64,000 bases of DNA from Candidatus Aenigmatarchaeota archaeon (GCA_043814985.1 JBDRJK010000021.1:32001-96000); one strand, 5' to 3'. Positions 2,758 to 32,143 are shown, counted from the first letter of the stretch. Numbers and translations are program-made. Notes: generated from the sequence alone by a model not told the origin.

Positions 2758-2765
2758 ACCTTTCA

Positions 2766-3338: not shown

Positions 3339-3395
3339 ATGAAGAATATAGAAAGTCATGTATATAAAAATTTCAAGATTAAGAATATTCCGTTA

Positions 3396-4280: not shown

Positions 4281-4377
4281 TTTATTTGTCTTCCATTATT
4301 ATTGCTTTTATTAGATCATTCATTATTATCACTATATTTACTACCCAATAGTAAATATATTACAAAAGAATATAAAG

Positions 4378-4608
4378 CTATCGTTCTAGCTTGAAAACTT
4401 CAAGTTCCTCGCAAATCTCGAGGATGGCCCAAGCCCAGACAATGGCCTCAAAGCTCTTGACCTCGTTGTTTGCTTTAAGAAAATGTTTTGAATCAGAAAT
4501 ATAGGCTTTCATGTTGGTGAGCATTTCCTGTCCTTTGTCATCTTTGACTTTTATCATTTCAACCAAAGGCTCTATCTTTACAGTCATTTTCTCTATTTCT
4601 TCCTTCAT
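4378..4608 (-). CDS. DUF357-family protein
   Basis: AYISDSKHF...SFEAIVWAWAIL motif; coupled to dph5, the usual archaeal neighbour. Confidence 0.8.
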   Translation of the reverse strand: MKEEIEKMTVKIEPLVEMIKVKDDKGQEMLTNMKAYISDSKHFLKANNEVKSFEAIVWAWAILEICEELEVFKLER

Positions 4609-5324: not shown

Positions 5325-5357
5325 ATTTTTAATGTGGTCCAAAGAAATATATAAAAC

Positions 5358-6915: not shown

Positions 6916-6935
6916 AATATCTATTGTTTGTGCGA

Positions 6936-6950
6936 ATAAAAAAAAGAAAA
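6936..6950 (-). terminator. Oligo-T archaeal terminator of the 6980-7360 gene
   Basis: T-rich run on the minus strand about 30 nt downstream of the stop. Confidence 0.5.
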
Positions 6951-6979
6951 GGGGTGGGTGTTTAAAAATACAATATTCA

Positions 6980-7360
6980 CTAGAACTTTGTAGATGCTGA
7001 CAACCATATTGCTTTCAATGCAATCAAGACTGCTGCTGGTACAACTAAAATTCCAATGTTGTTCACGATTGCTACCAAGTAAGTTGACAACGGTAGTGGA
7101 AGGTTTGCGAATGCTGATCCTGCGTTACCAGCTGCCATTAAAGCAATAACAGCTAACAGAAACATGTCTACTTCCTTGAAATCAATACTACCTACTCCAG
7201 CTACACCTAACAATCCGATTACGAATCCTAGTACTGCTAGGACAACTGTTACCATTGATGCGTCGATTGTTGGCACTAAGCCAGCTACGACTGCCACTAA
7301 GATACCTAGTACAAAAAGCCACCCACTTGCTTTTACCCATCCTGATGCTTTTTTTGCCAT
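6980..7360 (-). CDS. Small 4-TM hypothetical membrane protein
   Basis: 126 aa, highly hydrophobic; GGTGA RBS upstream. Confidence 0.8.
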   Translation of the reverse strand: MAKKASGWVKASGWLFVLGILVAVVAGLVPTIDASMVTVVLAVLGFVIGLLGVAGVGSIDFKEVDMFLLAVIALMAAGNAGSAFANLPLPLSTYLVAIVNNIGILVVPAAVLIALKAIWLSASTKF

Positions 7361-7434
7361 AGTTTCACCTATATTTCAATTGGAAAAACCGACTTTTAAA
7401 AGTATCGTCGTCAGGCGTTGTATTAGGAACTTAT

Positions 7435-7980
7435 TTAAACGGGCTCAGAAAAGGTATTTGCCTCGAATTTGTATATCTTTGACATTGGGTCTAACCAAGA
7501 ATCAGCTGTTAATCCTGCTTTGTAGCATAAATTCTCCAGATATTGCTCCAGATTCCATTTTTGATCAATGGGAACCTTGGGAAGGAAGAGTCCCCCCATT
7601 ATTCCGTTCCTTATAATCAGACCATGCTTCCCCAATTCTATTTCTTTCTTGTAATTCTTCTGAAAATTTTCAATCAGCACTGGTTCGGTCAGGACAGAAA
7701 CCTCGATTTTTATGTTCTTTAGTTCGTTTTCTTCAAGAGGTTCGAATCTTGGGTCCCTGCAGGCAAGACAAGCAGCCTCAACCAAGCCCTCTATTAAAGG
7801 CTTTTGAGGATAAGGCAAGCCTATACATCCTCTCAGCATGCCTTTTTTGTAGAGGGTTACGAAAACTCCCCTCTTTTCTTTCAATTCTTCTGGAAAATCA
7901 GTTGGAACATCAATTCTCTTGCCTGTTTTCACATAGTTTTCAATAGATTCTCTTGATAGCTTCAGGATAAACTCTCTCAT
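7435..7980 (-). CDS. AMMECR1-domain protein (TIGR00296-like)
   Basis: GVFVTL, LRGCIG, DPRF and GLFLP motifs. Confidence 0.93.
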   Translation of the reverse strand: MREFILKLSRESIENYVKTGKRIDVPTDFPEELKEKRGVFVTLYKKGMLRGCIGLPYPQKPLIEGLVEAACLACRDPRFEPLEENELKNIKIEVSVLTEPVLIENFQKNYKKEIELGKHGLIIRNGIMGGLFLPKVPIDQKWNLEQYLENLCYKAGLTADSWLDPMSKIYKFEANTFSEPV

Positions 7981-8001
7981 AGAAGTTAGTTCAGGTACGA
8001 A

Positions 8002-10638
8002 CTATTTATTTTTAGAGAATCTCATTAGGATTTCTGGCATTGCTAATAGACCTAGACTGGAGAACAATAACACCTTTACCCAGTCCATCAAGCTTAGCGC
8101 AGTCAGATGGAATATTCCTTGGAATAACGGTACATATATTATGACTATTTGCAGAATAAATGATATCAATACAGCAATTAGTAATTTTTTATTTGTCAGG
8201 GGATTTAACCTAAAAACACCCTTTTTTTCAGACCTGCAATTGAATACAAAAAACATCTCGAAAAATATTGCAGCACTAAAAGCCATTGTTTGTGCTTTCT
8301 CTAAACCGTTTGGTAATTCTAAAATAAAAATGCCAAAGGATGAAGCAAAATCCAATATTGATGCAAATATTATAAAAGCTAGTGTGCCTGTTATTATTCC
8401 TTTTTTAGGGTCTCTTGGAGGTTTTTTCATTACATCAGGATCTTTTGGGTCAACACTCAGTGCCAAAGCAGGAAGCCCGTCTGTAATCAAGTTAATCCAC
8501 AGTATGTGAATAGGTAAATAAGGTAAAATAATAGCCCCTGTTGCGTCAGTGAGTCCAATTAGCATGGGCACAGTTATCATTGCCAGCTCATCGAAATTGG
8601 CTGCCAGCAGGAACCTGACGAATTTTCTAATATTATCATAAATGCCCCTGCCTTCTTCAACAGCAGAGACTATTGTGGAAAAATTATCATCCATCAAGAC
8701 CATGTCAGCAGCTTCCTTTGACACGTCAGTTCCCTTTATCCCCATTGCAATACCAACATCTGCTTTTTTCAGGGCAGGTGCGTCATTGACACCATCACCT
8801 GTCATGGCAACCACATGGCCATTGGACTTTAGTATGTCAACAATTCTTATCTTATGACTTGGTGATACTCTTGCGAATATCACAGTGTCCTCCACAACTT
8901 CCTTTAGCTTTTTATCGTCCATCTTGTCCAGTTGTTCACCCCTTAGGATGTTTCCTTGCAGACCAACCTGGGAAGCAATTGCTTTTGCTGTTAATTCATG
9001 ATCGCCTGTTATCATTTTTATTTTGATTCCAGCCCTCTTGCAAAGAGCAATAGCGCTTTTGGTCTCCTTTCTTGGCGGATCTATCATTGCAACTAGGCCA
9101 ACAAAAGTCATGTTACTTTCAACTGAGTTTATGGAATATCTCTTTGATAACTCCTTATAAGAGAAGCCCAATACTCTGAGACCGTTTCCTGCCAACTCAT
9201 GAACAATCTTTAATATCTTTTCCTTGTCTGCCTTTACCAATTTTTTGTTGATGTAGATTTTGTCGCACATACCAAGTATGACTTCTGGAGCACCCTTGGT
9301 GTATGCGAAGATATCTCCTCCAATATTGTGGATTGTTGTCATTTTCTTTCTCTCAGAAGAGAATGGAATCTCATTGATTTTCTTATAATCTTCCTTTATT
9401 CCACTCTTTTCTGCCAGAACCTTCAAAGCTCCTTCAGTAGGGTCACCAATCACTTCCCACTGCTTTCCCCCCTTCAATATAGAATTATTACACATCGATC
9501 CTATCTTCAAAAGAATATCAAGACTTCCTATCCTTCTCGGGTCTATTTTCTTGTCGTTCAATAGAAAATCTCCCTTTGGATTAAAACCAACTCCAGTAAC
9601 ATCTATGATTTTTCCATTGACCCATATTTTTTTAACTGTCATTTCGTTTGTTGTCATAGTTCCAGTCTTATCCGCGCAGATAACTGTTGTTGATCCCAAA
9701 GCCTCGACTGCAGCCAGTCTTTTTATTACTGAATTCTTTTTCAGCATCCTCTGGGTTCCTAGAGCAAGGGTTAATGTTATGACAGCCGGGAGTCCTTCTG
9801 GGACAGCTGATATTGCCAGACTCAGTGCTGTCATGAACATGTAAAAGGGGTCTATGTTCCTGACCAATCCAATGGAGAAAATAATTGTGCTTGCTATCAG
9901 GACAACCAAGCCCAGCATTTTTCCAAGGCTTTGTAGTTTTATCTGCAGTGGTGTCGGCTCTTCCCTTTCCTGCACCATGCCTGCTATCTTTCCCATTTCA
10001 GTTGACATTCCAGTGGAAATCACAATTCCCATGCCTCTCCCATATGTGACCAGCGTTCCCATGAATCCCATGTTTTCCATTTCTGTGAGGGAGACATCTT
10101 TCAAAGGTTTTGTGTGCTTTGTTGCTGCTACTGATTCACCTGTTAGCATTGATTCATCAATTTTCAGGTTCAATGCTTCGAACAATCTTATATCTGCAGG
10201 AACCCTGTTTCCTGCCTCAAGAATGACAATGTCTCCTGGGACAATCTGTTCTATTGGCACTTCGACCTTTTCCATGTTTCTGACAACAAGGACCTTTGTC
10301 ACAATAAGTTTTTTCAGAGCCTCAATTGCCTTTTCAGCCTTGTACTCCTGATAAAAGCCTAGGATAGCGTTTAATACAAGAATAGCTCCTATTACAATTG
10401 CGTCTGTGATTAAACCTAGAACAAGTGATATTGCAGTTGCGAAGAGAAGCAAAATAACCAGAAAGCTCTTGAACTGCTCCAGTAAAATTATCAGGGATGT
10501 TCTCCTTTTCTTGCTCCTAATCTTGTTCATTCCATACTCTCTGAGTCTTAAATTGGCTTCAGAACTTTTCAGACCTTTCTCGTTGGTTTTCAATTCCTTG
10601 AAGACTTCCTCAGAACTCATTGTATGCCATTTGTTCAT
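8002..10638 (-). CDS. P2A-type (Ca2+-like) P-type ATPase, copy 1
   Basis: TGES, PEGL, DKTGT, GDGVND and LWINLITDG motifs. Confidence 0.95.
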   Translation of the reverse strand: MNKWHTMSSEEVFKELKTNEKGLKSSEANLRLREYGMNKIRSKKRRTSLIILLEQFKSFLVILLLFATAISLVLGLITDAIVIGAILVLNAILGFYQEYKAEKAIEALKKLIVTKVLVVRNMEKVEVPIEQIVPGDIVILEAGNRVPADIRLFEALNLKIDESMLTGESVAATKHTKPLKDVSLTEMENMGFMGTLVTYGRGMGIVISTGMSTEMGKIAGMVQEREEPTPLQIKLQSLGKMLGLVVLIASTIIFSIGLVRNIDPFYMFMTALSLAISAVPEGLPAVITLTLALGTQRMLKKNSVIKRLAAVEALGSTTVICADKTGTMTTNEMTVKKIWVNGKIIDVTGVGFNPKGDFLLNDKKIDPRRIGSLDILLKIGSMCNNSILKGGKQWEVIGDPTEGALKVLAEKSGIKEDYKKINEIPFSSERKKMTTIHNIGGDIFAYTKGAPEVILGMCDKIYINKKLVKADKEKILKIVHELAGNGLRVLGFSYKELSKRYSINSVESNMTFVGLVAMIDPPRKETKSAIALCKRAGIKIKMITGDHELTAKAIASQVGLQGNILRGEQLDKMDDKKLKEVVEDTVIFARVSPSHKIRIVDILKSNGHVVAMTGDGVNDAPALKKADVGIAMGIKGTDVSKEAADMVLMDDNFSTIVSAVEEGRGIYDNIRKFVRFLLAANFDELAMITVPMLIGLTDATGAIILPYLPIHILWINLITDGLPALALSVDPKDPDVMKKPPRDPKKGIITGTLAFIIFASILDFASSFGIFILELPNGLEKAQTMAFSAAIFFEMFFVFNCRSEKKGVFRLNPLTNKKLLIAVLISFILQIVIIYVPLFQGIFHLTALSLMDWVKVLLFSSLGLLAMPEILMRFSKNK
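8736..8781. repeat. 46-bp perfect inverted repeat, copy A (partner at 13687-13732)
   Basis: Reverse complement is GCACCTGCCCTGAAAAAAGCAGATGTTGGTATTGCAATGGGGATAA, identical to 13687-13732. Confidence 0.9.
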
Positions 10639-20743: not shown

Positions 20744-20835
20744 TGGTAGCGGGGGCTGGATTTGAACCAGCGACCTTCGGGTATCTCATCAGAGATTATG
20801 AGCCCGACGGGCACTCCTGGCTGCCCTACCCCGCT
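20744..20835 (-). tRNA. Initiator tRNA-Met (CAT) with a 14-nt intron at 37/38 (20783-20796); CCA encoded
   Basis: A1:U72 pair, GGG/CCC anticodon stem, TTCAAAT T-loop; BHB central helix CTCA/TGAG. Confidence 0.92.
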
Positions 20836-20860
20836 ATGTTCTAATAATAAGATGTTAAAA

Positions 20861-20876
20861 GTTATATAAGCTTTTC
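20861..20876 (-). promoter_or_regulatory. BRE-TATA promoter of tRNA-iMet
   Basis: GAAAAGCTTATATAAC about 26 nt upstream of the tRNA 5' end. Confidence 0.6.
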
Positions 20877-21737
20877 TTACAATGCCATCAGTATTATTCC
20901 CAACAGCATGAAAACAGAGCCTAGCACGCGCTGCAGTACATTGCCTTCCTTGAAGAACTTGAAACCGTAGAACGAACCGATTAGTATGCTTGTTCTCTTG
21001 ACAGCTATGGCATAGACTGCTAATGTCATGGTAAATGTGTATGAAAGACTCACTTCAGAAAGTGCCATGAAGAAGCCTATGCCCGTTAAATTCTTGAAGT
21101 TCTTTTTCACTTCGCTGAACCTTACCCTTTTCGTCAGGAAGACGAAGAGAGAGAAGATAATTGCCGCTATGAGGTACTCTGAAAAAACTCCGAAAAATAC
21201 GTTAGAGCTGTTTATCAGATATTTGATGGAAGTGGCTGTTATGCTCCAAAGGGCAGAGACGCCCAGCATGAGGACGGGTCCCCTTTCTTTTACAAGATAT
21301 ATGAAGGGGTGCAATATACTTTTCTTGATTTCCTTTATGTTTAGCACATATGCTCCAACTACTATGCTTATTATTCCTATGATGCCGACGGGGTTTGGGA
21401 ACTCTCCCAAAATCAGGGGCCCTGTGAGAAGCATGAAGATAGGGGTGAAGGCAAGCATTGGTAGGGTGAGCGACAAGGGCGAGATTGATATTGCCTTCAT
21501 GTAGAGGAGAACCGAAACAATATACACAATCGCTGCTATGAGGGCAACGAACCAGAAGAACAAAGTCGTCTGGGGAATTCCCACAAAGATGAGAGCAAAG
21601 GCTAAGAAGGGTAGGGTCAGGGTCATCAGGGACCATGTTGTAAGGTAGTGGTCGGCTTTTTTCATGGTTTGCTTGCTGATGTAGTCCTTGGTGGCAGATG
21701 CGAAGGCGGTGAACAAGGCCGTGACAATCCAGAACAT
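20877..21737 (-). CDS. DMT/EamA family transporter
   Basis: 10 TM helices; SPLSLTLP, ILGE and KRTS motifs. Confidence 0.88.
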   Translation of the reverse strand: MFWIVTALFTAFASATKDYISKQTMKKADHYLTTWSLMTLTLPFLAFALIFVGIPQTTLFFWFVALIAAIVYIVSVLLYMKAISISPLSLTLPMLAFTPIFMLLTGPLILGEFPNPVGIIGIISIVVGAYVLNIKEIKKSILHPFIYLVKERGPVLMLGVSALWSITATSIKYLINSSNVFFGVFSEYLIAAIIFSLFVFLTKRVRFSEVKKNFKNLTGIGFFMALSEVSLSYTFTMTLAVYAIAVKRTSILIGSFYGFKFFKEGNVLQRVLGSVFMLLGIILMAL

Positions 21738-21787
21738 AATAAGAAATTTGTCTTTAGTTAAATATTAATAAGTCTTATAACTAAAGG

Positions 21788-22459
21788 GTGTTTATGACAA
21801 CCATTCTTGGTATTGACGAGGCCGGCCGCGGGTCAGTTATAGGCCCCATGTGCATCGGGGGCGTGGTTATTGACGAGAAGGACTCAGCCAAGCTAAAGGC
21901 TTTGGGAGTCAAGGACAGCAAGCTGTTAACTCCTGAGCAGAGAGAGGCTTTATATCCCAAGATAAAAAAACTGGCAAAGGATCATGTTGTTCTCAAGGTT
22001 TCTGCCAAGCAGATAGACCAGATGAGGAAGACAACCAACCTCAACAGGATTGAGGCTCAGAAGATGGCAGAGATAATCAAGGCCATGAATGCTGACAAGG
22101 CTTATGTTGACGCGCCGCAGGTCTCTACGGAAAAGTTCAAGAATATACTGCTGGCCTTGGCTGAGAACAAAACTAAGATAATAGCTGAGAATCATGCTGA
22201 TTTGAAATACCCTGTCTGTTCGGCAGCAGCCATACTCGCAAAAGTGGAGAGGGACAGGGATGTGGAGAGGATAAAGAAGATAGTGGGCTTTGACTTCGGA
22301 GTGGGCTATCCCCATGACCAGAGGAGCATTGACTTTGTCAAAAAGGCCTTAAAGGAGAAGAAACACTTGGAATTCTTAAGGCATTCATGGGTTACTGTGA
22401 GCAATCTTAAAAATGAGAAGGAACAAAAAACATTAAAAGAGTATAAGAGAAATAAATAA
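21788..22459 (+). CDS. rnhB: Ribonuclease HII
   Basis: GIDEAGRG, DSK, AAAILAKV and GVGYP motifs. Confidence 0.96.
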   Translation: MFMTTILGIDEAGRGSVIGPMCIGGVVIDEKDSAKLKALGVKDSKLLTPEQREALYPKIKKLAKDHVVLKVSAKQIDQMRKTTNLNRIEAQKMAEIIKAMNADKAYVDAPQVSTEKFKNILLALAENKTKIIAENHADLKYPVCSAAAILAKVERDRDVERIKKIVGFDFGVGYPHDQRSIDFVKKALKEKKHLEFLRHSWVTVSNLKNEKEQKTLKEYKRNK

Positions 22460-22470
22460 GGAGGATTATT

Positions 22471-22728
22471 ATGAAAAATACGAACAAGACAACTATTGTT
22501 TATGTGGTAAGCGGGATACTGATAGGCTATATTAGTTTCTTGCTTAACAGCGAGTTTCTAGCTCTGGGTCTGGCATTTGTATCTTTATTTTTGATTGCGG
22601 AAATATTGAAAAAGGCGTTGAAGATAGATTCTAAGTTCAAGTGGTTCTGGTCCCACGGTGGATGGGTATACCTTTTCATCTGGTTCATAACATGGGTACT
22701 AGTCTGGAACCAGCCATTTGTTTTGTGA
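22471..22728 (+). CDS. Small 3-TM membrane protein
   Basis: 85 aa, GAGGA RBS, YLFIWFITWV tail; similar small genes commonly follow archaeal rnhB. Confidence 0.7.
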   Translation: MKNTNKTTIVYVVSGILIGYISFLLNSEFLALGLAFVSLFLIAEILKKALKIDSKFKWFWSHGGWVYLFIWFITWVLVWNQPFVL

Positions 22729-22732
22729 TTTT

Positions 22733-24076
22733 ATGATTGAGAATATTGGTGACTGGCAGAGAACACATTATTCCAAGCAGGTCAAGCCGGAAATGGGCAA
22801 TGAAGAAGTCATTGTGATGGGTTGGGTCAGAGAATTAAGGGACTTGGGTAAATTGAAGTTCATCAAGCTGGCTGACAGGGAAGGCTTCATACAGGTTACT
22901 GCAAAGGAAGGGGACGTCAAGCCGGATATAATCAATAAAATAGAAGGCTTGGGAAGGGAGGATGTCATTGCTGTCAAGGGCATTGTAAAGGCAAGCAAGC
23001 AGGCTCCCAATGGAATCGAAATAATGCCAGTTGATGTGAGGATTCTTAACACTTCTGATTCACCATTGCCTCTAGAGCTGGAGACCAAGAAAACACCTGC
23101 TCACATTGATACGAGGATGAACTGGAGATTTTTAGATTTGAGGAAACATGAGAACAATCTCATATTCAAGATACAGACTGCAATGGAAATGGCCATGAGG
23201 GAATTCTGGATCAAGAATGGTTTCATTGAAATTCATTCTCCTAAATTAATGGGTTCTCAGAGCGAGACAGGAGCAGAGCTGTTCACTGTTGTCTATTTTG
23301 ACAGGGAAGCGTATCTGGCACAATCGCCCCAGTTCTACAAGCAGCTGGCAATGATTGCAGGTTTTGATAGGGTTTTTGAGATAGCTCCTGTTTTCAGGGC
23401 CAATCCATCTCATACAGTTAGGCATGACACCGAGTACACTTCTATTGATATGGAGATGTCTTGGATAAGTTCACATGAGGATGTGATGGCATTTGAGGAA
23501 AAGTGGATTACCTATGTGATTGAACAAGTGAAGAAACAGTATGGAGACAAGATAAAGGAAACATTTGGTTTTGAATTGGTTGTTCCCAAAATACCTTTCC
23601 CAAGAATGACTCTCAAGGAAGCCAAGGATAAAATCAAGAAAACTGGTAAAAAGGTTTCATACAAAGAGGACCTTTCACCTGAGGAGGAAAGGCTTTTGGG
23701 AGAATTGGTAAAGGAAGAGTCCGGTCATGAGTTTGTGTTTGTGACTGAGTTCCCGTGGAAGATTAAGCCTTTCTATCACATGAGAGACGAGAAGAATCCT
23801 GGAGTGACAAAAGGTTTCGACTTACTGTGGAAAGGATTGGAAGTGACCACAGGCTCTCAGAGAGAGCACAGGTATGACGTGTTGGTTGAGCAGGCAAAGG
23901 AGAAGAAGCTTAAGTTGGACAGCATAAAGTCTTATCTGGATTTTTTCAGGTATGGGGCGCCTCCACATGGCGGTTTAGGTTTTGGTTTGACAAGGGCTCT
24001 TATGACAATGTTTGAAATGAAAAATGTGAGAGAGGTCACTTTCGCTTTCAGAGACATGGACAGGCTTTATCCTTAG
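22733..24076 (+). CDS. aspS: Aspartate--tRNA ligase, archaeal type (probably non-discriminating)
   Basis: RTHY, GWVRELRDLG, QAPNG (Pro), QSPQFYKQ and PPHGGLGFG motifs. Confidence 0.95.
   Translation: MIENIGDWQRTHYSKQVKPEMGNEEVIVMGWVRELRDLGKLKFIKLADREGFIQVTAKEGDVKPDIINKIEGLGREDVIAVKGIVKASKQAPNGIEIMPVDVRILNTSDSPLPLELETKKTPAHIDTRMNWRFLDLRKHENNLIFKIQTAMEMAMREFWIKNGFIEIHSPKLMGSQSETGAELFTVVYFDREAYLAQSPQFYKQLAMIAGFDRVFEIAPVFRANPSHTVRHDTEYTSIDMEMSWISSHEDVMAFEEKWITYVIEQVKKQYGDKIKETFGFELVVPKIPFPRMTLKEAKDKIKKTGKKVSYKEDLSPEEERLLGELVKEESGHEFVFVTEFPWKIKPFYHMRDEKNPGVTKGFDLLWKGLEVTTGSQREHRYDVLVEQAKEKKLKLDSIKSYLDFFRYGAPPHGGLGFGLTRALMTMFEMKNVREVTFAFRDMDRLYP
23294..23443 (+). repeat. 150-bp direct repeat, copy A, within aspS (partner at 25157-25306)
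   Basis: 18 mismatches in 150 nt by manual count; contains perfect 50-nt and 41-nt blocks. Confidence 0.9.
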
Positions 24077-24526
24077 GTGATTAAGATGAGAGAGTGTATA
24101 TTTTGCGAAATTGTAAAGGGAAAAAGAGAAAAAAATCACAAGATTCTTGAAAATGATAAGCATCTGGCTTTTCTAGATATTTATCCTGTTACTAAGGGCC
24201 AAACCTTGGTTATACCTAAGAAGCACTACAAAGGTTTAGGTGTTTTTAGTCTTACAAGAAATGAATATGAGGATTTGTTTCTCTTCGCTAAAAAGACCGC
24301 AAGAAAAATCAAGAAAAAACTCAAACCCAAGTTCATAATTATGGTCGTAGAGGGCATGATGATTGATCATCTTCACATAAAGCTTTATCCTATATACAAA
24401 ATACAAAAGAAGTCTGACAACAGGCTTCTAAAGCCTTATCAGCCATATAAAGGATATTTGATAACCCAGATAGGGCCGAAAGCCAGTGAAAAAAAACTTA
24501 AAAGAATAGCCCGCCTTCTTTCCTGA
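24077..24526 (+). CDS. HIT-family nucleotide hydrolase with variant HxHxK motif
   Basis: CIFC, AFLDIYP..KGQTLVIPKKH and HLHIKLYP motifs. Confidence 0.9.
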   Translation: MIKMRECIFCEIVKGKREKNHKILENDKHLAFLDIYPVTKGQTLVIPKKHYKGLGVFSLTRNEYEDLFLFAKKTARKIKKKLKPKFIIMVVEGMMIDHLHIKLYPIYKIQKKSDNRLLKPYQPYKGYLITQIGPKASEKKLKRIARLLS

Positions 24527-24592
24527 AGAATTTCTATTATATATTTAAAGTTTACTACTATATTGTAATACATAAATTAGGAGTGTGTTATT

Positions 24593-25939
24593 ATGGTAGA
24601 AATTAATTATAATGAAAAACAGATTGAATTGCTTCTAGGAAAGAGAAAACAAAATGCAGAAGTGACAGAAAGAGATTTTGGTAGCGATGTTGTTGTCGCA
24701 GGATACATAAAGAATATAGCAGATCTTGGTAAAAATATGAAGTTTCTAACTTTGGCAGATGCCTCAGGGGAAATACAACTGACGTTAAAGAAAGGAGTTT
24801 ATGTTGGAGTTGAGGATGCTAAAATGCTCACCCCTCATACCTTTATTGTTGCGAAAGGTGAGGCATGTAAAGGAAGGGCTAAAGACGGTCGTGAAGTTCT
24901 TGTAAAAGATATTAGTCTTTTGAGCGATGTTGTAACAGAGAAGATTCCAACAGAGATGAGGACCAGTCTTGACAAGAGATTGGATTACAGGTGGGTGGAT
25001 TTGAGGAATGAAAAGCACAGGTTCCCTCTTACAATGGTTTCCGAGTTCACAAGGTATTCAAGGGACTTTTTCAATGAAAACGGCTTCACTGAAATTTTCA
25101 CGCCAAAGATAGTGGGTACTCCAACTGAGGGTGGAGCAGAGGCGTTCCCTGTTCTTTATTTTGACAGGGAAGCGTATCTGGCACAATCGCCCCAGTTCTA
25201 CAAGCAAATGGCTATATGCTCTGGTTTTGACAGGGTTTTTGAGATAGCTCCTGTTTTCAGGGCCAATCCATCCCACACTACAAGGCATGATACCGAGTAC
25301 ACCTCTTTGGATTTCGAGATAGGGTACATTACATCGCATCAGGATGTAATGAAAGCCGAAGAGGGTATGCTGAGCCATGTTTTCAAAAACATTAAAGAGA
25401 AGTATGGGGATAAAATCAGGAAGAAATTCAAACAGGAGATAGACGTTCCTAAAAATATACCTCAAATAAGGATGGAGGAAGCTTACGAGATTGTAACAAA
25501 GGAAGATGTAGACGAAAAAGGCAGCTTGAGACCATCAGGGGAGAAGGCTGTTTCTGAACATGTTAAGGAAGCATACGGAAGTGATTTCATCTTTATAACA
25601 GATTTCCCTTATGATGCTAGACCTTTTTATCATATGAAGGGTGAAGCTATGAGGAACGGTAAAGAGACTACGAAGAGCTTTGACCTGATTTACAGAGGTG
25701 TAGAGATTACAACAGGCGCTCAGAGGGAACACAGGCACGGAAAATTAACAGCCCAAGTGGTTGAGAAAGGCTTAAGTACTAATAATCTAAAACAATATCT
25801 AGATTTTTTCAAGTACGGAGCACCTCCCCACGGTGGTATCGGGTTGAGCCCTAGTAGAGTTGTCACGAACATGCTTGATCTCGGGAATGTGAGGGAAGCA
25901 ACAATGGCTCCGAGGGATCCGAAAAGACTGTTTCCATAG
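24593..25939 (+). CDS. Second, divergent aspartate--tRNA ligase
   Basis: QSPQFYKQ, FRANPSH, EITTGAQR and PPHGG motifs intact; divergent N-terminal OB domain. Confidence 0.9.
   Translation: MVEINYNEKQIELLLGKRKQNAEVTERDFGSDVVVAGYIKNIADLGKNMKFLTLADASGEIQLTLKKGVYVGVEDAKMLTPHTFIVAKGEACKGRAKDGREVLVKDISLLSDVVTEKIPTEMRTSLDKRLDYRWVDLRNEKHRFPLTMVSEFTRYSRDFFNENGFTEIFTPKIVGTPTEGGAEAFPVLYFDREAYLAQSPQFYKQMAICSGFDRVFEIAPVFRANPSHTTRHDTEYTSLDFEIGYITSHQDVMKAEEGMLSHVFKNIKEKYGDKIRKKFKQEIDVPKNIPQIRMEEAYEIVTKEDVDEKGSLRPSGEKAVSEHVKEAYGSDFIFITDFPYDARPFYHMKGEAMRNGKETTKSFDLIYRGVEITTGAQREHRHGKLTAQVVEKGLSTNNLKQYLDFFKYGAPPHGGIGLSPSRVVTNMLDLGNVREATMAPRDPKRLFP
25157..25306 (+). repeat. 150-bp direct repeat, copy B, within the second AspRS
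   Basis: See copy A at 23294-23443. Confidence 0.9.
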
Positions 25940-25948
25940 GTTGTTTAT

Positions 25949-27256
25949 TTGCTGAATAGAGACTTAATAAAAAATGTTAAAAAACAAGATAAAGAAAAAG
26001 ACGTTAACGTTTTTGGATGGCTTAAAAACAAAAAGGATTTTGGCAAAATAATCATTTTGAGAATAGTTGATTCTTCTGGAGAGATTCGTGCTGTGGCAAA
26101 GACCAAAATATTGAAAGAGAACTCTTTTCTTGATATCAAGAAGCTCAAGAAGGAATCCTGTATAAATGTTATGGGAAATTACGATTCCAAAAAGAAAGAA
26201 ATCCAGATAAAAGAAATAAAAATTATTGCAGCTGCTACTAAGTCTATATCGCCCTCCGCAAGGGATGATTTTGATATCTATAATCAGAAATACACAAGTC
26301 TTGTCTGCGATAACAGGCACATCTATTTGAGAAACGAGAAAATTGCCACAATACTCAAGATTAGGAGCATGTTCATGGAGGAAATGCGCGATTACTTCCA
26401 AAAGAACAATTTCATCAATTTTAGCGCACCGATTTTGACCAACATAACACTTTATGGCGACAAGACAGCCTTTGATATTGATTTCTGTGGTAAGAAACTC
26501 TACCTCACACAATGCACAGCATTCTATCTGGAGTCTGCTATACCGGCTTTCGAGAAGGTTTATTTCATGTCGCCTTCTTTCAGGAATGAAAAGTCTAAGA
26601 GCAGGAGGCATCTTAGCGAATACTGGCACTGCAAAGGAGAAATAGCTTTTTGTGATTTAGAAGGAATGATGAAGTTTGTAGAGAATATGACATACACTGT
26701 CTACAAAAATCTAGTAAAAAACGCAGGAGAGGAGATGAGGAAAATAACCAAAATAGATTTTAACAAATTCAAGCCACCTTACAAGTCAATTACCTATGAA
26801 AAGGCCGTTGAAGTTCTACAGAATAATGGTTTCAAAATAAAGTTTGGTCAAAGCATTGGGAGTGACGAAGAAAGATTCTTAGGTGAGAGGATGAAAAAAA
26901 TGTTTTGGATCAAGTTCCTACCAAGAAAGGTGGAGGCATTCCCCTACAGAATCAACCCTTCTGATGAAAGAACAACACTGACGGCAGACCTCTTGTGCAA
27001 TGAGTCTGGCGAGATATTGGGAACCGCTGAAAAGATATATCAAAAGGAAGAATTGGAAAGAAGGATGAGGGAGGATTTCGTTGCACATCCAAAAGAAATT
27101 TACAAATGGTACATAGAGCTTAGAGAAATGGGCTTGCCGCCGCATAGTGGTTTTGGTATGGGTGTGGAAAGAGTCTTGAGAAGTTTTCTTAATCTTAAAC
27201 ATGTAAGGGATGTTATACCTTATCCAAGACTTTATACAAGATTACCTTATCCTTGA
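25949..27256 (+). CDS. Asparaginyl-tRNA synthetase-like class IIb paralog with altered substrate pocket
   Basis: OB domain; motif 2 PSFRNEKSKSRRHLSEYW; motif 3 PHSGFGMGVER. Confidence 0.85.
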   Translation: MLNRDLIKNVKKQDKEKDVNVFGWLKNKKDFGKIIILRIVDSSGEIRAVAKTKILKENSFLDIKKLKKESCINVMGNYDSKKKEIQIKEIKIIAAATKSISPSARDDFDIYNQKYTSLVCDNRHIYLRNEKIATILKIRSMFMEEMRDYFQKNNFINFSAPILTNITLYGDKTAFDIDFCGKKLYLTQCTAFYLESAIPAFEKVYFMSPSFRNEKSKSRRHLSEYWHCKGEIAFCDLEGMMKFVENMTYTVYKNLVKNAGEEMRKITKIDFNKFKPPYKSITYEKAVEVLQNNGFKIKFGQSIGSDEERFLGERMKKMFWIKFLPRKVEAFPYRINPSDERTTLTADLLCNESGEILGTAEKIYQKEELERRMREDFVAHPKEIYKWYIELREMGLPPHSGFGMGVERVLRSFLNLKHVRDVIPYPRLYTRLPYP

Positions 27257-28149
27257 TTTAATAATATTTCTATATTTTCAGAACCAATTTTTTTAAGAGT
27301 ATCGTCATTGAAATCTAAGTTCATAAAACTCTTTACAACATTCATATATTTTTCTTCAGTAATGTAGGGTAAATCTGTTCCGAATAATATCTTTTCAGCA
27401 CCCAATGTTTTGATTAGAAAATCATATACGTCTTTACAATTCTTTTTGGTTTTAGCTGCAAACCTATCCAAAAGACTGGTTTCAACAAAAACATTCTTTG
27501 TCTTTCTAGCATTTTCCAATACACCAGTGTCAAGCCTAGCACAGTGGGCAATTATGAAGCTTACAGAGGGATAGCATCTGGCAAGTTCTATTATATTAGA
27601 AGGTAGTGAGTTTTCATCCTCACCTGAATGCGAGATAAAAACAAGGCCGTTTTCCTTGACAATATCCATTATTTCTGTTTTAGCTAGTTTTTTTGGGGAG
27701 AAATTAGTTACAAAGGGATGTATTTTAACACCTATTATACCTTTCTCAATATAATCATTCAGACATTTCACATTTTTAGGGTATCTCGGGTCTATTATTA
27801 TGAAAGGTAATAAATCCTTGTTTCTTTTCCCAATGCCAATTATCTTTTCATTTTCTTTGTGATAGGGGTTTTCCTTGATTTTCCACCTTCCCTTACAGAG
27901 GGGGCATTCCAGAATGTAATGGTCTTCATGGACGCTTAAACATGTGGGGGAAAGACCGTAAGATTTGCAGTTTTTATTTTCACATGTTAGCTCTCTTACG
28001 CTTGGGCAGGGGAAAATTACAGATTTTTCAACCCCATTTTTTCTCATTAAATCTAATAGCCTACTTTCTGATAACGATATCTTTCTATCAGTCTTTCTGT
28101 TATAATAGTAATCGTTTCCTATATGCACGTGGCAGTCTGTTATTTTCAT
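27247..28149 (-). CDS. Amidohydrolase-superfamily metal-dependent hydrolase with Cys-rich insertion
   Basis: DCHVH, GVKIHP, SHSG, IAH and FGTD motifs; C..C/CPLC insert. Confidence 0.85.
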   Translation of the reverse strand: MKITDCHVHIGNDYYYNRKTDRKISLSESRLLDLMRKNGVEKSVIFPCPSVRELTCENKNCKSYGLSPTCLSVHEDHYILECPLCKGRWKIKENPYHKENEKIIGIGKRNKDLLPFIIIDPRYPKNVKCLNDYIEKGIIGVKIHPFVTNFSPKKLAKTEIMDIVKENGLVFISHSGEDENSLPSNIIELARCYPSVSFIIAHCARLDTGVLENARKTKNVFVETSLLDRFAAKTKKNCKDVYDFLIKTLGAEKILFGTDLPYITEEKYMNVVKSFMNLDFNDDTLKKIGSENIEILLNQG

Positions 28150-28208
28150 AATTATAATTATATATGGAAACCATAAATTTTATAAGTTTCTAATATTCTA
28201 ATGATGTT

Positions 28209-28388
28209 ATGGCTTGGTCTATAAACAATGAAAAATGCATTAGATGTGGAGGCTGTGTTTCAGTCTGCCCTTTTGCTGCATTAGAGCTGGATGACGATGT
28301 TATTCATGATGAAAAGCTGTGCACTTTGTGCGGAATTTGCGAGAAAGCTTGTCCTGTAAGAGCAATAGAGGTGAAAAAAGATGGGTAA
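28209..28388 (+). CDS. 2[4Fe-4S] ferredoxin (59 aa; absent from the ORF track)
   Basis: CIRCGGCVSVCP and CTLCGICEKACP motifs. Confidence 0.92.
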   Translation: MAWSINNEKCIRCGGCVSVCPFAALELDDDVIHDEKLCTLCGICEKACPVRAIEVKKDG

Positions 28389-28452
28389 GAAAAGGAGCTG
28401 GAAAACTGGGAAATCCCAGACCAAATATTCAAGAGAGAAGAAGAAAAAATGA
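28381..28452 (+). CDS. Putative 23-aa basic peptide MGKKRSWKTGKSQTKYSREKKKK
   Basis: GAGGTGA RBS upstream; fills the ferredoxin-GGR gap exactly. Confidence 0.4.
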   Translation: MGKKRSWKTGKSQTKYSREKKKK

Positions 28453-28456
28453 TACT

Positions 28457-29602
28457 ATGTACGATGTGATAATTGTCGGCGCTGGTCCTGCTGGAAGCTC
28501 TTGTGCCAAGAGGTTGGTAGAGAAGGGTTTCTCTGTTAAGATATTTGACAGGAGAGAGGAGTTAGGAGTTCCTGTCAGGTGCGGGGAAGGCTTGAGCGAG
28601 CATGCTCAGGATATTATAGGTAAGATTCCCAAAGAATGCATTTCCCAGAATATCAAGGGAGCCAGGGTATATGCCCCAAACGGCAAGTACTTGGAAGCTG
28701 TGCTTGAGACTGGAGGATTCATACTGGACAGGAGAAAGTTTGACAAGTGGTTGGCAGAGAAGGCTGAGAAGGCAGGCGCGGAAATACAGAAGGACACCCT
28801 GATCACCGATTTCATAGTGGAGGACGGCTACTACATCGGAGTCAAGGGCGAGGGCTTTGAGGAAAAGGCAAGAATGGTTGTCTGCGCCACAGGAGCCGAG
28901 TCTGCTTTAAGGAAGTCTTTGAAGGTCTTCTCAAAGCTGGAGCTTATTGATTCTTGCTTGCAATATAAAATGTCCGGCATTGGTTCGGACCAGGATTTCA
29001 TCCACATTTATCTTGGGAACGAGATATCTCCAAGGGGATACACTTGGGTGTTTCCAAAGGGAGGCGACAAGGGCAATGTCGGAGTGGGCATCATTCCAGG
29101 AGAAAAAACAGCCAAGCACTATCTGGACAAGTTCATTAAGGAGACCGATGAACTGAAGAACGGCGAAATATACTTGGTCGAGGGAGGCTGCGTTCCTGTT
29201 GGCGGCATGCTGAAGGATGCAGTGGATAATGGTTTATTGCTGTGCGGCGAGGCAGCGCATTATGTCAACCCCATACATGGTGGCGGCATAAAGGAAGGTA
29301 TCGTATCAGGTTTTTTGGCTGCTGATGTCATTGCAGAATGTTTAAAGAATAATGATGTTTCCAAAAAAGCCCTGTCCAAGTACAATGACTTGTGGTGGGA
29401 GCAGAGAGGCAACAAGCTGAAGAAGGTGGAGAAGCTGAGGGAAGTTCTCGAGAAGCTCTCTGACAAGGATTTGAACGAGTTGCTTGATGTTCTCAAGCCA
29501 GAGGACATTGTTGATTTCACCAGGGGAGCCAAACTCTCTGTTCTTGCAAAGGCCCTCATGAGAAAGCCCAGGTTGTTAGGACTGGCTAGGCACTTGATGT
29601 AA
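28457..29602 (+). CDS. Digeranylgeranylglycerophospholipid (geranylgeranyl) reductase
   Basis: MYDVIIVGAGPAG, PVRCGEG, GYTWVFPK and NPIHGGGI motifs; start re-called to 28457. Confidence 0.9.
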   Translation: MYDVIIVGAGPAGSSCAKRLVEKGFSVKIFDRREELGVPVRCGEGLSEHAQDIIGKIPKECISQNIKGARVYAPNGKYLEAVLETGGFILDRRKFDKWLAEKAEKAGAEIQKDTLITDFIVEDGYYIGVKGEGFEEKARMVVCATGAESALRKSLKVFSKLELIDSCLQYKMSGIGSDQDFIHIYLGNEISPRGYTWVFPKGGDKGNVGVGIIPGEKTAKHYLDKFIKETDELKNGEIYLVEGGCVPVGGMLKDAVDNGLLLCGEAAHYVNPIHGGGIKEGIVSGFLAADVIAECLKNNDVSKKALSKYNDLWWEQRGNKLKKVEKLREVLEKLSDKDLNELLDVLKPEDIVDFTRGAKLSVLAKALMRKPRLLGLARHLM

Positions 29603-29665
29603 TCAGCTTATTTAATAACAATACAAATAATTATTTTATCTAAGTTGCAATATTCTAGTGGTAAG

Positions 29666-32143
29666 ATGACGAGAATAGAAAAATTAGATATACAGGGTTT
29701 CAAGTCCTTTTCCAGGAAGACTTCCCTAACTTTCCCTAGCAACTTCTCTGTGATATGCGGTCCCAACGGCTCTGGCAAGTCCAACATACTTGACGCGTTA
29801 TGTTTCGTTCTGGGAAGGACCTCTGCCAAAAGCTTGAGGGCTGACAGGATGATGGAGATGATATTCCACGGCACAAAGAATAGGCCTCCCGCAGAGCTGG
29901 CAAAGGTCTCAATGCATTTTGACAACTCAAGTAAAGAGTTCCCCTTTGAGGATGACAAGGTCATCCTGTCCAGGAGAATAAACAGGAAAGGCATTTCCAT
30001 TTACAAATTAAACGGAAGGACTGTTACAAGGGAAAGGATCCAGGAGATTCTCAGGCCTGTCAGAATCCGACCTGGCGGCCACAATATAATTTTGCAGGGA
30101 GATGTCACTGAGATAGTTGAGATGAGTCCTCTGGAAAGAAGAGAGATTATTGATGAGATATCTGGGATAAAGGAGTTCGACCAGAAGAGAGACAAGGCCC
30201 AACGCGAGTTGATGACAGTCGAGAACCGGTTAAAGGAGTCGCATATCATTCTTCACGAGAAAAGGTCAAACCTTGTCAGGCTTGAAAAGGAGAGTAAAGA
30301 TGCTCAAAGATACCAGAAGCTGACAAGGGAACTTGATAAATTAAGAGCCTCTTTGGCAAGGCACAAGCTGAGTGTTGCTGAGAAGGCAATGGCAAAGCTC
30401 GACGAGAAAATAAGTAATATCGAGACAGGTGACATTGACAAGGAAGTTGATGTGATAGAGAAGGAGTTGGAGAGGGTTGAGAAGGAGAGGGATGTTGTTG
30501 ACAAGAGGCTTTTTGACAGGACCAAGGACATTGCCATAATTAAAGAAGTTGAGAAGATAAGGTCTGAGATAAACAGGAACAGGGACAAGATAGATATGGG
30601 ACAGCTCAACATAAGAAGGACAGAGGACGTGATAAGGAGATTAGAATACTTGCAGCAGAAGGAGAGGGAAGGTTCTGTCAGCAAGGCTGTCAAGGAGATA
30701 ATGAACCTTGGTTGGACAGGAGTATACGGGACAATTTCCTCGTTGTCAAAGGTTTCCAAGAAGCACCAGTCAGCAATTGAGGTGGCTGCTGGCCCGCATC
30801 TTAATGATATAATTGTTTCTGATGAAAGGGTTGCAATTGAGTGCGTTAACCATTTGAAGAAAAACAAGATTGGGAGGGCAACGTTTCTTCCCCTGAACAA
30901 GATAAAAACAAGGGACAGCAAAGGTCTGAAGAAGTTCTCTTATGATGACGGCTTTGTTGGCATAGCAATCGATTTGGTAGAGTTTGACAACAAGTACTAC
31001 AATGCATTTTCTCATGTTTTCGGGAGCACTGTCATTGCCAACACAATCAGTGATGTCAGGAGGATGGGCATAGGCAATGCTAGGTTTGTAACTCTTGAAG
31101 GAGACTTGATAGAGAGGTCAGGAGCAATAATCGGCGGTTATTACATCAAGAAGAGGGTCTTTTCTGGCAAGGAGGAGATTGAAAAATATACTAATGACAA
31201 GGCAAAGCTGGCTGCTGACATCAAGGTTCTGGAGAAGGATATTGTTTCTCTGAAAGCTCAGTTGGAGTCTTTAACAACTGAGGAGGAAACTGGCAGCAAG
31301 GAATTGACTGACATGCAGAAGAAAAGGCAGATGCTGGAAGAGATGTTCGACTCATTGGAAAAGAAGAGGAAGAGTATGTTCCACGAGAGGATGAACTCCC
31401 AGGAGAGCATTAACAAATTAAGAATTAGAAAGGCAAGGCTTGAGGCGGAATTAGAAAACCTTAAACTGGAGTTCGAGAACTACAAGAAGACCGAGACGCT
31501 TGACATTACCCCGTCTGTTCTGGAAAATAGGATACACCAGACCACTGTCTACATAAACGCTTTGGGACTGATAAACATGAAGGCTCTTGAGGAGTATGAC
31601 GAGCAGAAGATAATATTCACCGATCTTAAGGAGAAGGTCGACAAGTTGACAGAGGAGAGGAACAAGATTCTAGAGATAATAGCCGAGATTGAGGGCAAGA
31701 GGAAGGAGTCATTTACCAAGACCCTGGATGAATTGAGAAAGGAGTTCAAGATTGTTTTCCATGACTTGATGAAGGGCGAGGCTGATTTGAGGCTGATAGG
31801 CGGTATGGACAGTGGCTTATTGATTGAAGGCAGTGCAAAAACTAAAAAGATGATGAACATAGATTTGATGTCTGGTGGCGAGAAGACCTTGACTGCTCTA
31901 GCATTCCTGTTTGCCATCCAGAGGTTCAGGCCAGCGCCGTTTTATATTCTTGACGAGATTGACGCTGCTTTAGATAAACCGAACACCAAAAAGACAGTTG
32001 AGTTGATTAAGAAGTATTGCGACAATTCCCAGTTTATTGTTATTTCACATAATGAAGCGACAATCCAGGCAGCTGATTCTGTGTACGGAGTTTCTATGGA
32101 AGAAGGGGAGTCTAGGTTGGTTGGAATAAAGATGCCTGGCTAA
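29666..32143 (+). CDS. smc: Chromosome segregation protein SMC with short coiled-coil arms (about 825 aa)
   Basis: Walker A GPNGSGKSN, Q-loop ILQG, hinge GRATFLPL, signature MSGGEK, Walker B ILDEIDAALD. Confidence 0.92.
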   Translation: MTRIEKLDIQGFKSFSRKTSLTFPSNFSVICGPNGSGKSNILDALCFVLGRTSAKSLRADRMMEMIFHGTKNRPPAELAKVSMHFDNSSKEFPFEDDKVILSRRINRKGISIYKLNGRTVTRERIQEILRPVRIRPGGHNIILQGDVTEIVEMSPLERREIIDEISGIKEFDQKRDKAQRELMTVENRLKESHIILHEKRSNLVRLEKESKDAQRYQKLTRELDKLRASLARHKLSVAEKAMAKLDEKISNIETGDIDKEVDVIEKELERVEKERDVVDKRLFDRTKDIAIIKEVEKIRSEINRNRDKIDMGQLNIRRTEDVIRRLEYLQQKEREGSVSKAVKEIMNLGWTGVYGTISSLSKVSKKHQSAIEVAAGPHLNDIIVSDERVAIECVNHLKKNKIGRATFLPLNKIKTRDSKGLKKFSYDDGFVGIAIDLVEFDNKYYNAFSHVFGSTVIANTISDVRRMGIGNARFVTLEGDLIERSGAIIGGYYIKKRVFSGKEEIEKYTNDKAKLAADIKVLEKDIVSLKAQLESLTTEEETGSKELTDMQKKRQMLEEMFDSLEKKRKSMFHERMNSQESINKLRIRKARLEAELENLKLEFENYKKTETLDITPSVLENRIHQTTVYINALGLINMKALEEYDEQKIIFTDLKEKVDKLTEERNKILEIIAEIEGKRKESFTKTLDELRKEFKIVFHDLMKGEADLRLIGGMDSGLLIEGSAKTKKMMNIDLMSGGEKTLTALAFLFAIQRFRPAPFYILDEIDAALDKPNTKKTVELIKKYCDNSQFIVISHNEATIQAADSVYGVSMEEGESRLVGIKMPG

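Follow-up and report, generated by a model that had tools for sequence, protein, structure and literature searches.

A three-gene insertion in a Candidatus Aenigmatarchaeota genome carries an archaeal-type AspRS paired with a divergent, AsnRS-like protein family

The synthetase gene cluster described here lies on a stretch of DNA of 64,000 nucleotides (nt) from a Candidatus Aenigmatarchaeota archaeon (GCA_043814985.1, JBDRJK010000021.1:32001-96000), which as a whole is called the window. Between positions 22733 and 28149, the window holds two genes for archaeal-type aspartyl-tRNA synthetase (AspRS), named aspS1 and aspS2, a gene for a relative of asparaginyl-tRNA synthetase (AsnRS), a histidine-triad (HIT) family gene and a convergent amidohydrolase gene. 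The AsnRS-like gene belongs to a separate family, called type-2, in which the residues that make up the canonical amino acid pocket are replaced. Sequence comparison suggests that aspS2 and the type-2 gene are one instance of an old, co-inherited pair, which occurs sporadically in DPANN, the candidate phyla radiation (CPR), Bacteroidia and Lachnospiraceae. Here, the pair sits in a strain-specific segment next to a resident aspS1–HIT operon.

The source assembly (G000) is an 808-kb genome in 21 contigs, which is 91% complete with approximately 40% GC; the window is G000:C21:32001-96000. When 31-mers were sampled from the stretch, 72–98% of them were found in three sequencing runs from two studies. 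The features of the cluster are:

22733–24076 (open reading frame as listed from TTG 22718), plus strand: aspS1, archaeal-type AspRS, NF003483 545.7 bits
24077–24526, plus strand: HIT-family gene, PF01230 47 bits
24593–25939, plus strand: aspS2, second archaeal-type AspRS, NF003483 452.8 bits
25949–27256, plus strand: type-2 AsnRS-like gene (protein P0003), best on AsnRS models, below their cut-offs
27247–28149, minus strand: orphan amidohydrolase, PF04909 Amidohydro_2 66.6 bits
24527–28172, no strand: strain-specific segment of approximately 3.7 kb with three genes, defined by collinearity with G002 and G001

This gene content, which was established from open reading frames, Pfam and NCBIfam, is that given in a preliminary description of the stretch: three class IIb synthetases, a HIT gene and a convergent amidohydrolase. 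PF00152 and PF01336 are present in all three synthetases, with PF00152 scores of 281, 263 and 209 bits, and the 808-kb genome has no PF00152 match besides these three. AspRS1 and AspRS2 are 45% identical to one another and each is 26–28% identical to the AsnRS-like protein. The preliminary description had called three Asx-type synthetases unexpected, and this was borne out: two full-length AspRS genes were found only in G007 and G029 among 40 relatives searched, so that the triple arrangement is unusual for the lineage. Further matches fetched from G006, G008, G013 and G019 (six loci) comprise four short AS-AR-like genes, one canonical AsnRS and one lysyl-tRNA synthetase (LysRS).

The type-2 gene starts 9 nt after the end of aspS2 and, as had been suspected, its product is not an ordinary AsnRS. 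P0003 scores 319.2 on NF003037 against a cut-off of 414 and 299.3 on TIGR00457 against a cut-off of 342.6, and the type-2 protein of locus L056 also lies below both (303.8 and 266.8, respectively). Its best match in the PDB is the AsnRS of P. horikoshii (1X54, 249 bits), and the oligonucleotide-binding (OB) anticodon domain is kept (PF01336, 33 bits; PF00152, 209 bits). On NF005052, which was used to recognise AsnA/AS-AR proteins, it reaches 141.5 bits against a cut-off of 368, and those proteins lack the anticodon domain that is present here. In a search of 5.8 billion clusters, the best type-2 matches are 58% identical, and 78 clusters (P0125–P0202, 36–58% identity) rank ahead of the canonical AsnRS group of 430 residues. 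These clusters have in common the signature QC[x][AG]FYLE, EYWHxKxE and AEK, which is absent from canonical AsnRS. In the strand that canonical enzymes write as QS.Q, serine is replaced by cysteine and glutamine by alanine or glycine (threonine in four) in 78 of 78 clusters. Overall, the four elements of the canonical pocket, namely QS.Q, the motif-2 acid, GG.(Q/E)R and the flipping-loop Glu, are all replaced in P0003 and in P0125–P0202, and are kept in P0203–P0244 and in the AsnRS of relatives.

The remainder of the active site is preserved. In 38 aligned type-2 members R212, E224, D347, E355 and R408, which are the motif-2 and motif-3 arginines and the Mg/ATP acids, are invariant, as are the AsnRS-type Leu-Glu and the OB domain. 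In a FastTree phylogeny, the type-2 proteins form a clade of 88 rows with a support of 100 and a stem of 0.56, placed beside canonical AsnRS. The signature is found in 41 of the best 150 matches in a library of 50%-identity representatives. Two members with long extensions (P0260 and P0282) have no extra Pfam domain. In the ESM Atlas, P0003 falls among clusters named ‘Asparagine--tRNA ligase (family protein)’ from Bacillota, Bacteroidota, Zixibacteria and Spirochaetota, and current automatic names of type-2 genes are inconsistent, being either ‘asparagine--tRNA ligase’ or ‘hypothetical protein’. In the short AS-AR-like genes of relatives, Gln, Glu and Arg are as in canonical enzymes, and thus the type-2 changes do not mimic that known paralogue.

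The association with AspRS was followed in 13 type-2 loci: the window, three loci in species genomes (L056–L058), six from metagenomes (L136–L141), two from CPR-sized genomes (L262 of G395 and L263 of G566) and one from G007 (L222). In 12 of the 13, which span DPANN, CPR, Bacteroidia and Lachnospiraceae, the type-2 gene has an archaeal-type AspRS gene next to it or not far away. The AspRS gene adjoins the type-2 gene in ten loci, is one gene away in L058 and is 5 kb away in L057, within the same operon rich in aminoacyl-tRNA synthetase genes; the exception is the 4-kb locus of G007, which has no AspRS on it. The co-occurrence that had been foreseen for the whole cluster thus holds in part: it is strong for the two synthetases and less frequent for their neighbours, with HIT near the type-2 gene in 4/13 loci (window, L139, L141 and L263) and PF04909 in 2/13 (window and L139). 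A Peptidase_S51 gene of the cyanophycinase/PepE type stands beside the pair in three of the 13 (L056, L137 and L140). No tRNA genes were found beside the pair in 10 loci.

The trees point in the same direction. Eight partner AspRSs of type-2 loci form one clade with a support of 99, which is separate from the 31-row clade (support 100) in which aspS2 sits. Their tree and the type-2 tree have broadly similar topologies, with L139 grouping with L138 and L140 in both. In addition, the longest contig is 8547 nt for both P0022 of the aspS2 clade and the type-2 cluster P0130, and their sources are identical (ncbi, lgn and ena), which suggests that they are on the same contig. The type-2 family is sporadic. 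In a scan of the phylum (371 genomes, best 30 loci checked), the signature occurs in two genomes only, G000 and G007, and a scan of the CPR-like class gave three of 201 genomes. Contig scans with a generic pattern found, among the matches listed, at least 3 type-2 loci of 80 from genomes and at least 6 of 80 from metagenomes, the rest being mostly canonical AsnRS, and these values are not frequencies. Among IMG/VR viral contigs, 50 pattern matches were obtained and none is related to type-2.

One of these loci has features of its own. In L057, which is from a metagenome-assembled genome of Lachnospiraceae, a T-box leader (106 bits) at 4237–4475 lies upstream of an ACT/metallo-beta-lactamase gene, and its specifier appears to be AUC. 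The genes onward are hisS, type-2, a PurD-like ATP-grasp gene, a 473-residue protein of unknown function, a class IIa-core-like gene, AAA_28, an HD-domain gene and aspS. No T-box or other RNA element was found in the 525-nt gap directly 5′ of the type-2 gene, as the sole T-box precedes another gene.

Comparison with same-genus genomes defines the insertion. Positions 2517–6155 of the G002 locus match window positions 20826–24465 (80% at the nt level) and positions 6253–9367 match window positions 28173–31282 (88%), so that approximately 100 bp stand in place of the approximately 3.7 kb of the window. G002 keeps aspS1 and HIT at this locus and is without aspS2, the AsnRS-like gene and the amidohydrolase; the aspS1–HIT unit is considered resident because G002 has it. 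In G001, another genome of the genus, collinearity extends to both flanks, a single aspS stands between orf85 and the reductase gene, and HIT and the segment are lacking. From these alignments, the aspS locus is seen to have been altered twice, by a replacement of the catalytic domain that is common to G000 and G002 and that probably brought HIT along, and by a three-gene insertion seen only in G000. The proposal that the five genes make up one module does not survive this comparison, as G002 has only aspS1–HIT, G001 lacks HIT together with the three inserted genes, and the amidohydrolase is an orphan. At the ends of the insertion, no repeats, integrase or tRNA were seen, and an AT-rich 8-mer on both sides was judged to be chance or promoter. 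A foreign origin was also sought in composition, which is not diagnostic: the GC content at third codon positions of the inserted genes is 0.31–0.41, within the genome spread of 0.43 ± 0.085.

The resident aspS1 is itself a mosaic, in which the anticodon-binding domain is native and the catalytic domain is foreign. In alignment columns 1–150, which cover the anticodon domain, it is 62–78% identical to G001 and 68–76% to G008, whereas in columns 151–461, which cover the catalytic part, it is 27–55% identical to these two and 62–91% to the first AspRS of G029 (G029a). In the tree, aspS1 clusters with G002, G029a and P0072 with a support of 100, apart from G001, and its orthologue in the same-genus G002 is 94% identical. 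ATG 22733 is a likelier start than TTG 22718. AspRS1 (447 or 452 residues) and AspRS2 (448 residues) both have the marks of the archaeal type (NF003483/TIGR00458): they exceed the NF003483 cut-off of 353, lack the GAD insertion and are of approximately 430–450 residues. G029 provides a related observation, as G029:C51 (L018) has tandem AspRS genes at 4947–6290 and 6723–8129, the first in the aspS1 clade and the second with the native enzymes of that family; on these affinities, it is taken as another case of a foreign aspS landing at an aspS locus.

The HIT gene abuts aspS1 with zero gap. Its product has the HIT domain (PF01230, 47 bits against a cut-off of 21.5) and its best NCBIfam match is a weak one to HinT (38.7 bits). 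The motif is D-H-L-H-I-K-L-Y-P, so that the triad reads H-x-H-x-K and not H-x-H-x-H, and this is the same in five of five aligned homologues. Orthologues follow aspS1 directly in G002 (195.8 bits) and lie beside a canonical asnS in G023 (124 bits), and homologues adjoin type-2/AspRS pairs in L139, L141 and L263. Adjacency of a HIT gene to a class IIb synthetase gene is seen in the window, G002, G023, L139, L141 and L263.

The inserted aspS2 has intact motifs for Asp and ATP. Both AspRSs of the cluster keep QSPQ.YK, the motif-2 R..(D)xE, GxQRE and the motif-3 Arg, and in aspS2 these are QSPQFYKQ, the motif-2 stretch RHDTEYTSLDFE and GAQREH; its motif 3 is GLSPSR, which is unusual and common to its clade. 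No close orthologue was found in the 40 relatives (best 49%), and the nearest sequence, P0006, is 66–67% identical. The two enzymes differ in the L4 loop, which is QAPNG in aspS1 and RAKDG in aspS2. The AP.G form is that of nearly all native AspRSs in the loci of 37 relatives, including aspS1, and is also found in T. thermophilus AspRS2 and in the S. tokodaii enzyme. Lysine occupies the position in aspS2, in its clade and in eight of eight partner AspRSs, where it aligns with K85 of T. kodakarensis AspRS. No AspRS other than the partner was found in G041, G042 and G043, where the partner must therefore serve translation. As a separate observation, G007 has an aspS-gatA-gatB operon with a divergent, AP-loop AspRS (L259, G007:C7, approximately 2575–6207); its native AspRS gene and a type-2 AsnRS-like gene are located elsewhere in the assembly, on different contigs.

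The third inserted gene, the amidohydrolase, is convergent with the AsnRS-like gene and overlaps its end by 10 nt. The protein has no NCBIfam match and only three weak homologues (23–27% identity) among the 5.8 billion clusters, which makes it an orphan. Its similarity to the PF04909 protein of L139 is not significant (E 0.043). Residues 47–86, approximately, form a Cys-rich insert with closely spaced cysteines including a C-x-x-C, which looks like a small zinc-binding module within a TIM-barrel hydrolase.

The routes to Asn-tRNAAsn in these genomes were also surveyed, as the preliminary description had advised for GatCAB and canonical AsnRS. Neither was found in the G000 assembly, although gatCAB may be on a missing contig. 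The 91% complete genome has GatD and GatE, on contig C11 only, with no Amidase/GatA match and with GatE as the single GatB_N match; no AsnA and no AsnB were found in it, and the cluster itself has no GatB/E or amidase/asparaginase subunit. GatA is present in all three congeners (G001, G002 and G003). In G002, the gene row is a purF-like gene, gatC, gatA, gatB and an ftsZ paralogue, and no AsnRS was found; G001 and G003 have a canonical asnS where G002 has the purF-like gene. Each congener has two FtsZ proteins, which are 50% identical paralogues, while G000 has one (G000:C1:76135-77247), the missing one being the gatCAB neighbour. A clean deletion of gatCAB from G000 was considered on synteny and is unsupported, as only ftsZ is shared with C1 and this is the other paralogue. 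The three sequencing runs that hold the cluster also hold contigs of 0.8–2.8 kb at a depth of 4–7 that are 84–91% like the purF-gatCAB-ftsZ2 locus of G002, a divergence like that between G000 and G002 in the window (80–88%). These contigs may belong to G000 and be too short to bin, or to a co-resident relative. Elsewhere, G042 (Lachnospiraceae) has a canonical AsnRS with AsnA, and G043 (Bacteroidia) has one with AsnB, both without GatB. GatB is present in G007, G041, G395 and G566, and no canonical AsnRS was found in the last three.

The tRNA genes of G000 do not bear on the question. ARAGORN, with and without introns, and Rfam RF00005 gave 36, many with long introns, some at apparently non-canonical positions. 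A tRNAAsn gene was not found by ARAGORN, RF00005 or a pattern search, which is uninformative, as several Gly, Ser, Leu, Glu and Gln isoacceptors are missing too. At G000:C1:15164-15250, ARAGORN calls a ‘Pyl (CTA)’ tRNA (49 bits as an Rfam tRNA) with a long variable arm, whose anticodon arm can be drawn either with an A.G mismatch and C33 or, with a 9-nt loop, as a perfect stem of 5 bp. No other candidate for tRNA-Leu(UAA) was detected, and this gene may be one that was miscalled; alternatively, it may truly encode a tRNA that reads amber codons. The GatE of G000 (G000:C11:62608-64050; L004 1474–2916) is only 480 residues long, matches two stretches of a 630-position model and appears to be without the central insertion domain of canonical GatE. 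Single in-frame stops occur in GatA of G004:C7:22908-24161 (TAA) and G026:C4:497996-499258 (TGA) and in FtsZ of G003:C17:8097-9188 (TAA), and could be sequencing errors, pseudogenes or recoding.

The gene content, insertion, mosaic, signature, synteny and phyletic spread are observed, and every enzymatic activity that follows is predicted. The reading preferred here, which is tentative, is that the pair may be a mobile kit, in which a discriminating-type AspRS and a derived AsnRS have been added to a host with a non-discriminating AspRS and GatCAB, with HIT as an adenylate hydrolase partner. One layer would be the resident aspS1–HIT operon, and aspS1 probably serves the indirect route, in which Asp-tRNAAsn is made first and amidated afterwards, because it has the AP loop and the genome of its G002 orthologue has gatCAB and no AsnRS that could be found. 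The second layer would be the insertion of approximately 3.7 kb, comprising aspS2, the type-2 gene and an unrelated, orphan hydrolase. With an L4 loop of the Lys type, like the discriminating T. kodakarensis enzyme, aspS2 would charge tRNAAsp only, and the type-2 enzyme would activate Asn and charge tRNAAsn, which is the direct route. The HIT protein would hydrolyse the aminoacyl-adenylates or diadenosine tetraphosphate (Ap4A) released by class IIb enzymes that have no editing. Hint proteins hydrolyse aminoacyl-adenylates, and this, together with the linkage of HIT genes to class IIb synthetases, makes such a role plausible.

Several points weigh against the mobile-kit reading, and most concern the pocket. 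In 78 of 78 clusters the first acid of motif 2 is Lys (EYWHxKxE vs EFWMxExE), the Arg of GG.QR, which reads the side chain, is Lys in most and Phe in four of the 78, and the ..EGG.. of the flipping loop has become ..LY[DE]... By alignment, the alpha-ammonium positions of class IIb enzymes are all changed across the type-2 clade. Outside the flipping loop, the changed positions bind the alpha-ammonium group or the side chain in AspRS, AsnRS and LysRS. Within that loop, E279 of human AsnRS is described as contacting the Asn moiety (PMC10831071). Nor do type-2 proteins conserve the R[AS]PGG that the L4 loop has in canonical AsnRS. In P. horikoshii AsnRS this loop holds the Arg that reads U36, and its loss makes type-2 reading of anticodon base 36 uncertain. 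Furthermore, another route to Asn-tRNAAsn was found in every other type-2 genome examined, and type-2 is the sole route in none of them. For G000, the missing FtsZ2 and the gatCAB-like contigs in the same runs make a missing contig as likely as a loss of gatCAB. Finally, the reading leans on the meaning given to the AspRS L4 loop, in which Pro is said, after work by Feng and by Charron and colleagues in 2003, to mark non-discriminating enzymes and Lys discriminating ones.

The changes in the pocket would be explained if type-2 were not an AsnRS at all but a new class II adenylate-forming, tRNA-binding enzyme that acts on the product of its partner AspRS, which is rather unlikely. It might then do the work of GatCAB in a single protein, using ATP and ammonia to amidate Asp-tRNAAsn; it might instead activate the beta-carboxyl group of Asp, or load onto tRNA an Asx-like acid that has no alpha-ammonium group. 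Replacement of every alpha-ammonium-binding position beside invariant ATP/Mg and motif-3 residues fits such an enzyme, as does the tight and ancient linkage to AspRS, and all members tested fall under the curated AsnRS cut-offs. A further AspRS is often kept in genomes that bear the pair (G000, G395, G566 and L138), like in Thermus/Deinococcus, type-2 has never been shown to be the sole route to Asn-tRNAAsn, and a gene for the Asp-releasing Peptidase_S51 adjoins the pair in 3/13 loci. However, we know of no enzyme of this kind, which counts against the proposal, and the AS-AR-like paralogues keep Gln, Glu and Arg, so that beta-activation needs no such changes. The loop of the partner AspRSs is of the Lys type, unlike the AP of non-discriminating enzymes, G042 and G043 already have an AsnRS with AsnA or AsnB, and an acidic residue one or two positions on in the flipping loop could bind the alpha-ammonium group.

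A stronger version of the direct route, in which G000 truly lost gatCAB, has no canonical asnS and depends on type-2 as its sole source of Asn-tRNAAsn, is improbable. It would account for a genome with three PF00152 genes, no GatA match, a GatB_N match that is only GatE and no AsnA or AsnB, but this genome is 91% complete, it also misses the gatCAB-adjacent ftsZ paralogue of G001–G003, and contigs 84–91% like gatCAB-ftsZ2 are in all three runs that hold the cluster. The preliminary description favoured a defence or biosynthesis system, and resistance or self-immunity would mean inhibitor-insensitive synthetase copies with HIT, S51 and PF04909 proteins that detoxify an Asp- or Asn-adenylate mimic of the microcin C type. 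Known immunity factors against peptide-nucleotide antibiotics include HIT hydrolases and peptidases, hydrolases recur near the pair (HIT 4/13, S51 3/13 and PF04909 2/13), the pair is sporadic and spread horizontally across domains, and a remodelled pocket could exclude the mimic. Resistance to such a compound has no direct support and is distinctly improbable. The locus has no biosynthesis or export genes: family scans of 18.6–32.1 kb, in which small peptide open reading frames were not searched, found no adenylyltransferase, precursor, exporter or acetyltransferase of peptide-nucleotide toxin loci. PADLOC gave no match for five of six proteins and only a generic 25-bit ‘ThsC2 HIT family’ match for the HIT protein. 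Moreover, aspS1–HIT is a resident operon in G002, which has no extra copies, the partner is the only AspRS found in G041, G042 and G043 and so is housekeeping, and for the amidohydrolases of the window and L139 no relation closer than their common Pfam family could be demonstrated.

Across 18.6–32.1 kb the genes are two EamA transporters, an unknown gene, RNase HII, an 85-codon open reading frame (orf85), the cluster, geranylgeranyl reductase and SMC, so that RNase HII and orf85 flank the cluster on one side and the reductase and SMC on the other. The SMC protein (29645–32143) is only 832 residues long and matches three stretches of the 1165-position TIGR02169 (719 bits, cut-off 729); its coiled coil appears much shortened. 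Upstream of the reductase and in line with its open reading frame, 28207–28318 encodes a ferredoxin-like C-x-x-C-x-x-C-x-x-x-C-P motif; the true start of the reductase is probably before the listed GTG, giving it an N-terminal 4Fe-4S domain. A scan for sigma-70 promoters and terminators gave counts equal to those of shuffled sequence, and such a scan is not meaningful for an archaeon.

The two routes to Asn-tRNAAsn, direct charging by AsnRS and charging by a non-discriminating AspRS followed by GatCAB, are a textbook case of how the machinery of the genetic code evolves. To this, the type-2 family adds an AsnRS-derived protein, conserved in archaea and bacteria, that is without the residues which class IIb synthetases use for the alpha-amino group. 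If it is an AsnRS, it would recognise its substrate in an alternative way, as part of an AspRS/AsnRS pair able to move as a unit; if it is not, it would be a new enzyme derived from a synthetase. Full-text searches, which excluded supplements, found no description of an AsnRS subfamily with the type-2 signature or of a mobile AspRS/AsnRS-like pair.

Among known systems, canonical AsnRS (e.g. 1X54) is like type-2 in having an N-terminal OB domain and a class IIb core, and the motif-2/3 arginines, Mg/ATP acids and Leu-Glu are kept. It differs in that QS[GW]QLY.E has become QC.[AG]FYLE, EFW.xExE has become EYWHxKxE, GG.QR has become.AEK and EGG has become LY[DE], and type-2 lacks the L4 R[AS]PGG, scores below the NF003037 and TIGR00457 cut-offs and forms a separate clade. 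Hint/HinT histidine-triad hydrolases act with LysRS, which is of class IIb, and the present HIT protein is likewise a small protein tied genetically to class IIb synthetases; unlike them, it has an H-x-H-x-K motif and its partners are AspRS and AsnRS-like proteins, not LysRS. Immunity determinants of the microcin C type include an acetyltransferase, a peptidase and a HIT hydrolase. The likeness lies in a HIT hydrolase and peptidases near an AspRS gene, whereas genes for biosynthesis, a precursor or export are missing here, as is a match to a defence model, and the HIT gene is in a resident operon.

AsnA and AS-AR also are class IIb cores co-opted for Asx chemistry. They lack the anticodon domain that type-2 keeps, and the AS-AR-like genes of relatives retain the Gln, Glu and Arg that type-2 has replaced. 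In its treatment of AspRS paralogues, a 2022 review of synthetase duplications names only AS-A/AS-AR and ErdS, with no mention of AsnRS there (PMC9437257). A second, archaeal-type AspRS is rare in bacteria according to a survey of that domain (PMC4206432). The same source describes Thermus and Deinococcus as having two AspRSs, a bacterial, discriminating one and an archaeal-type, non-discriminating AspRS2 that works with GatCAB. As in the window, a second, horizontally acquired AspRS of the archaeal type is tied there to asparagine decoding. The arrangement is different here, as the extra AspRS is of the Lys type, the resident one is of the AP type, and the constant neighbour is the AsnRS-like gene and not gatCAB.

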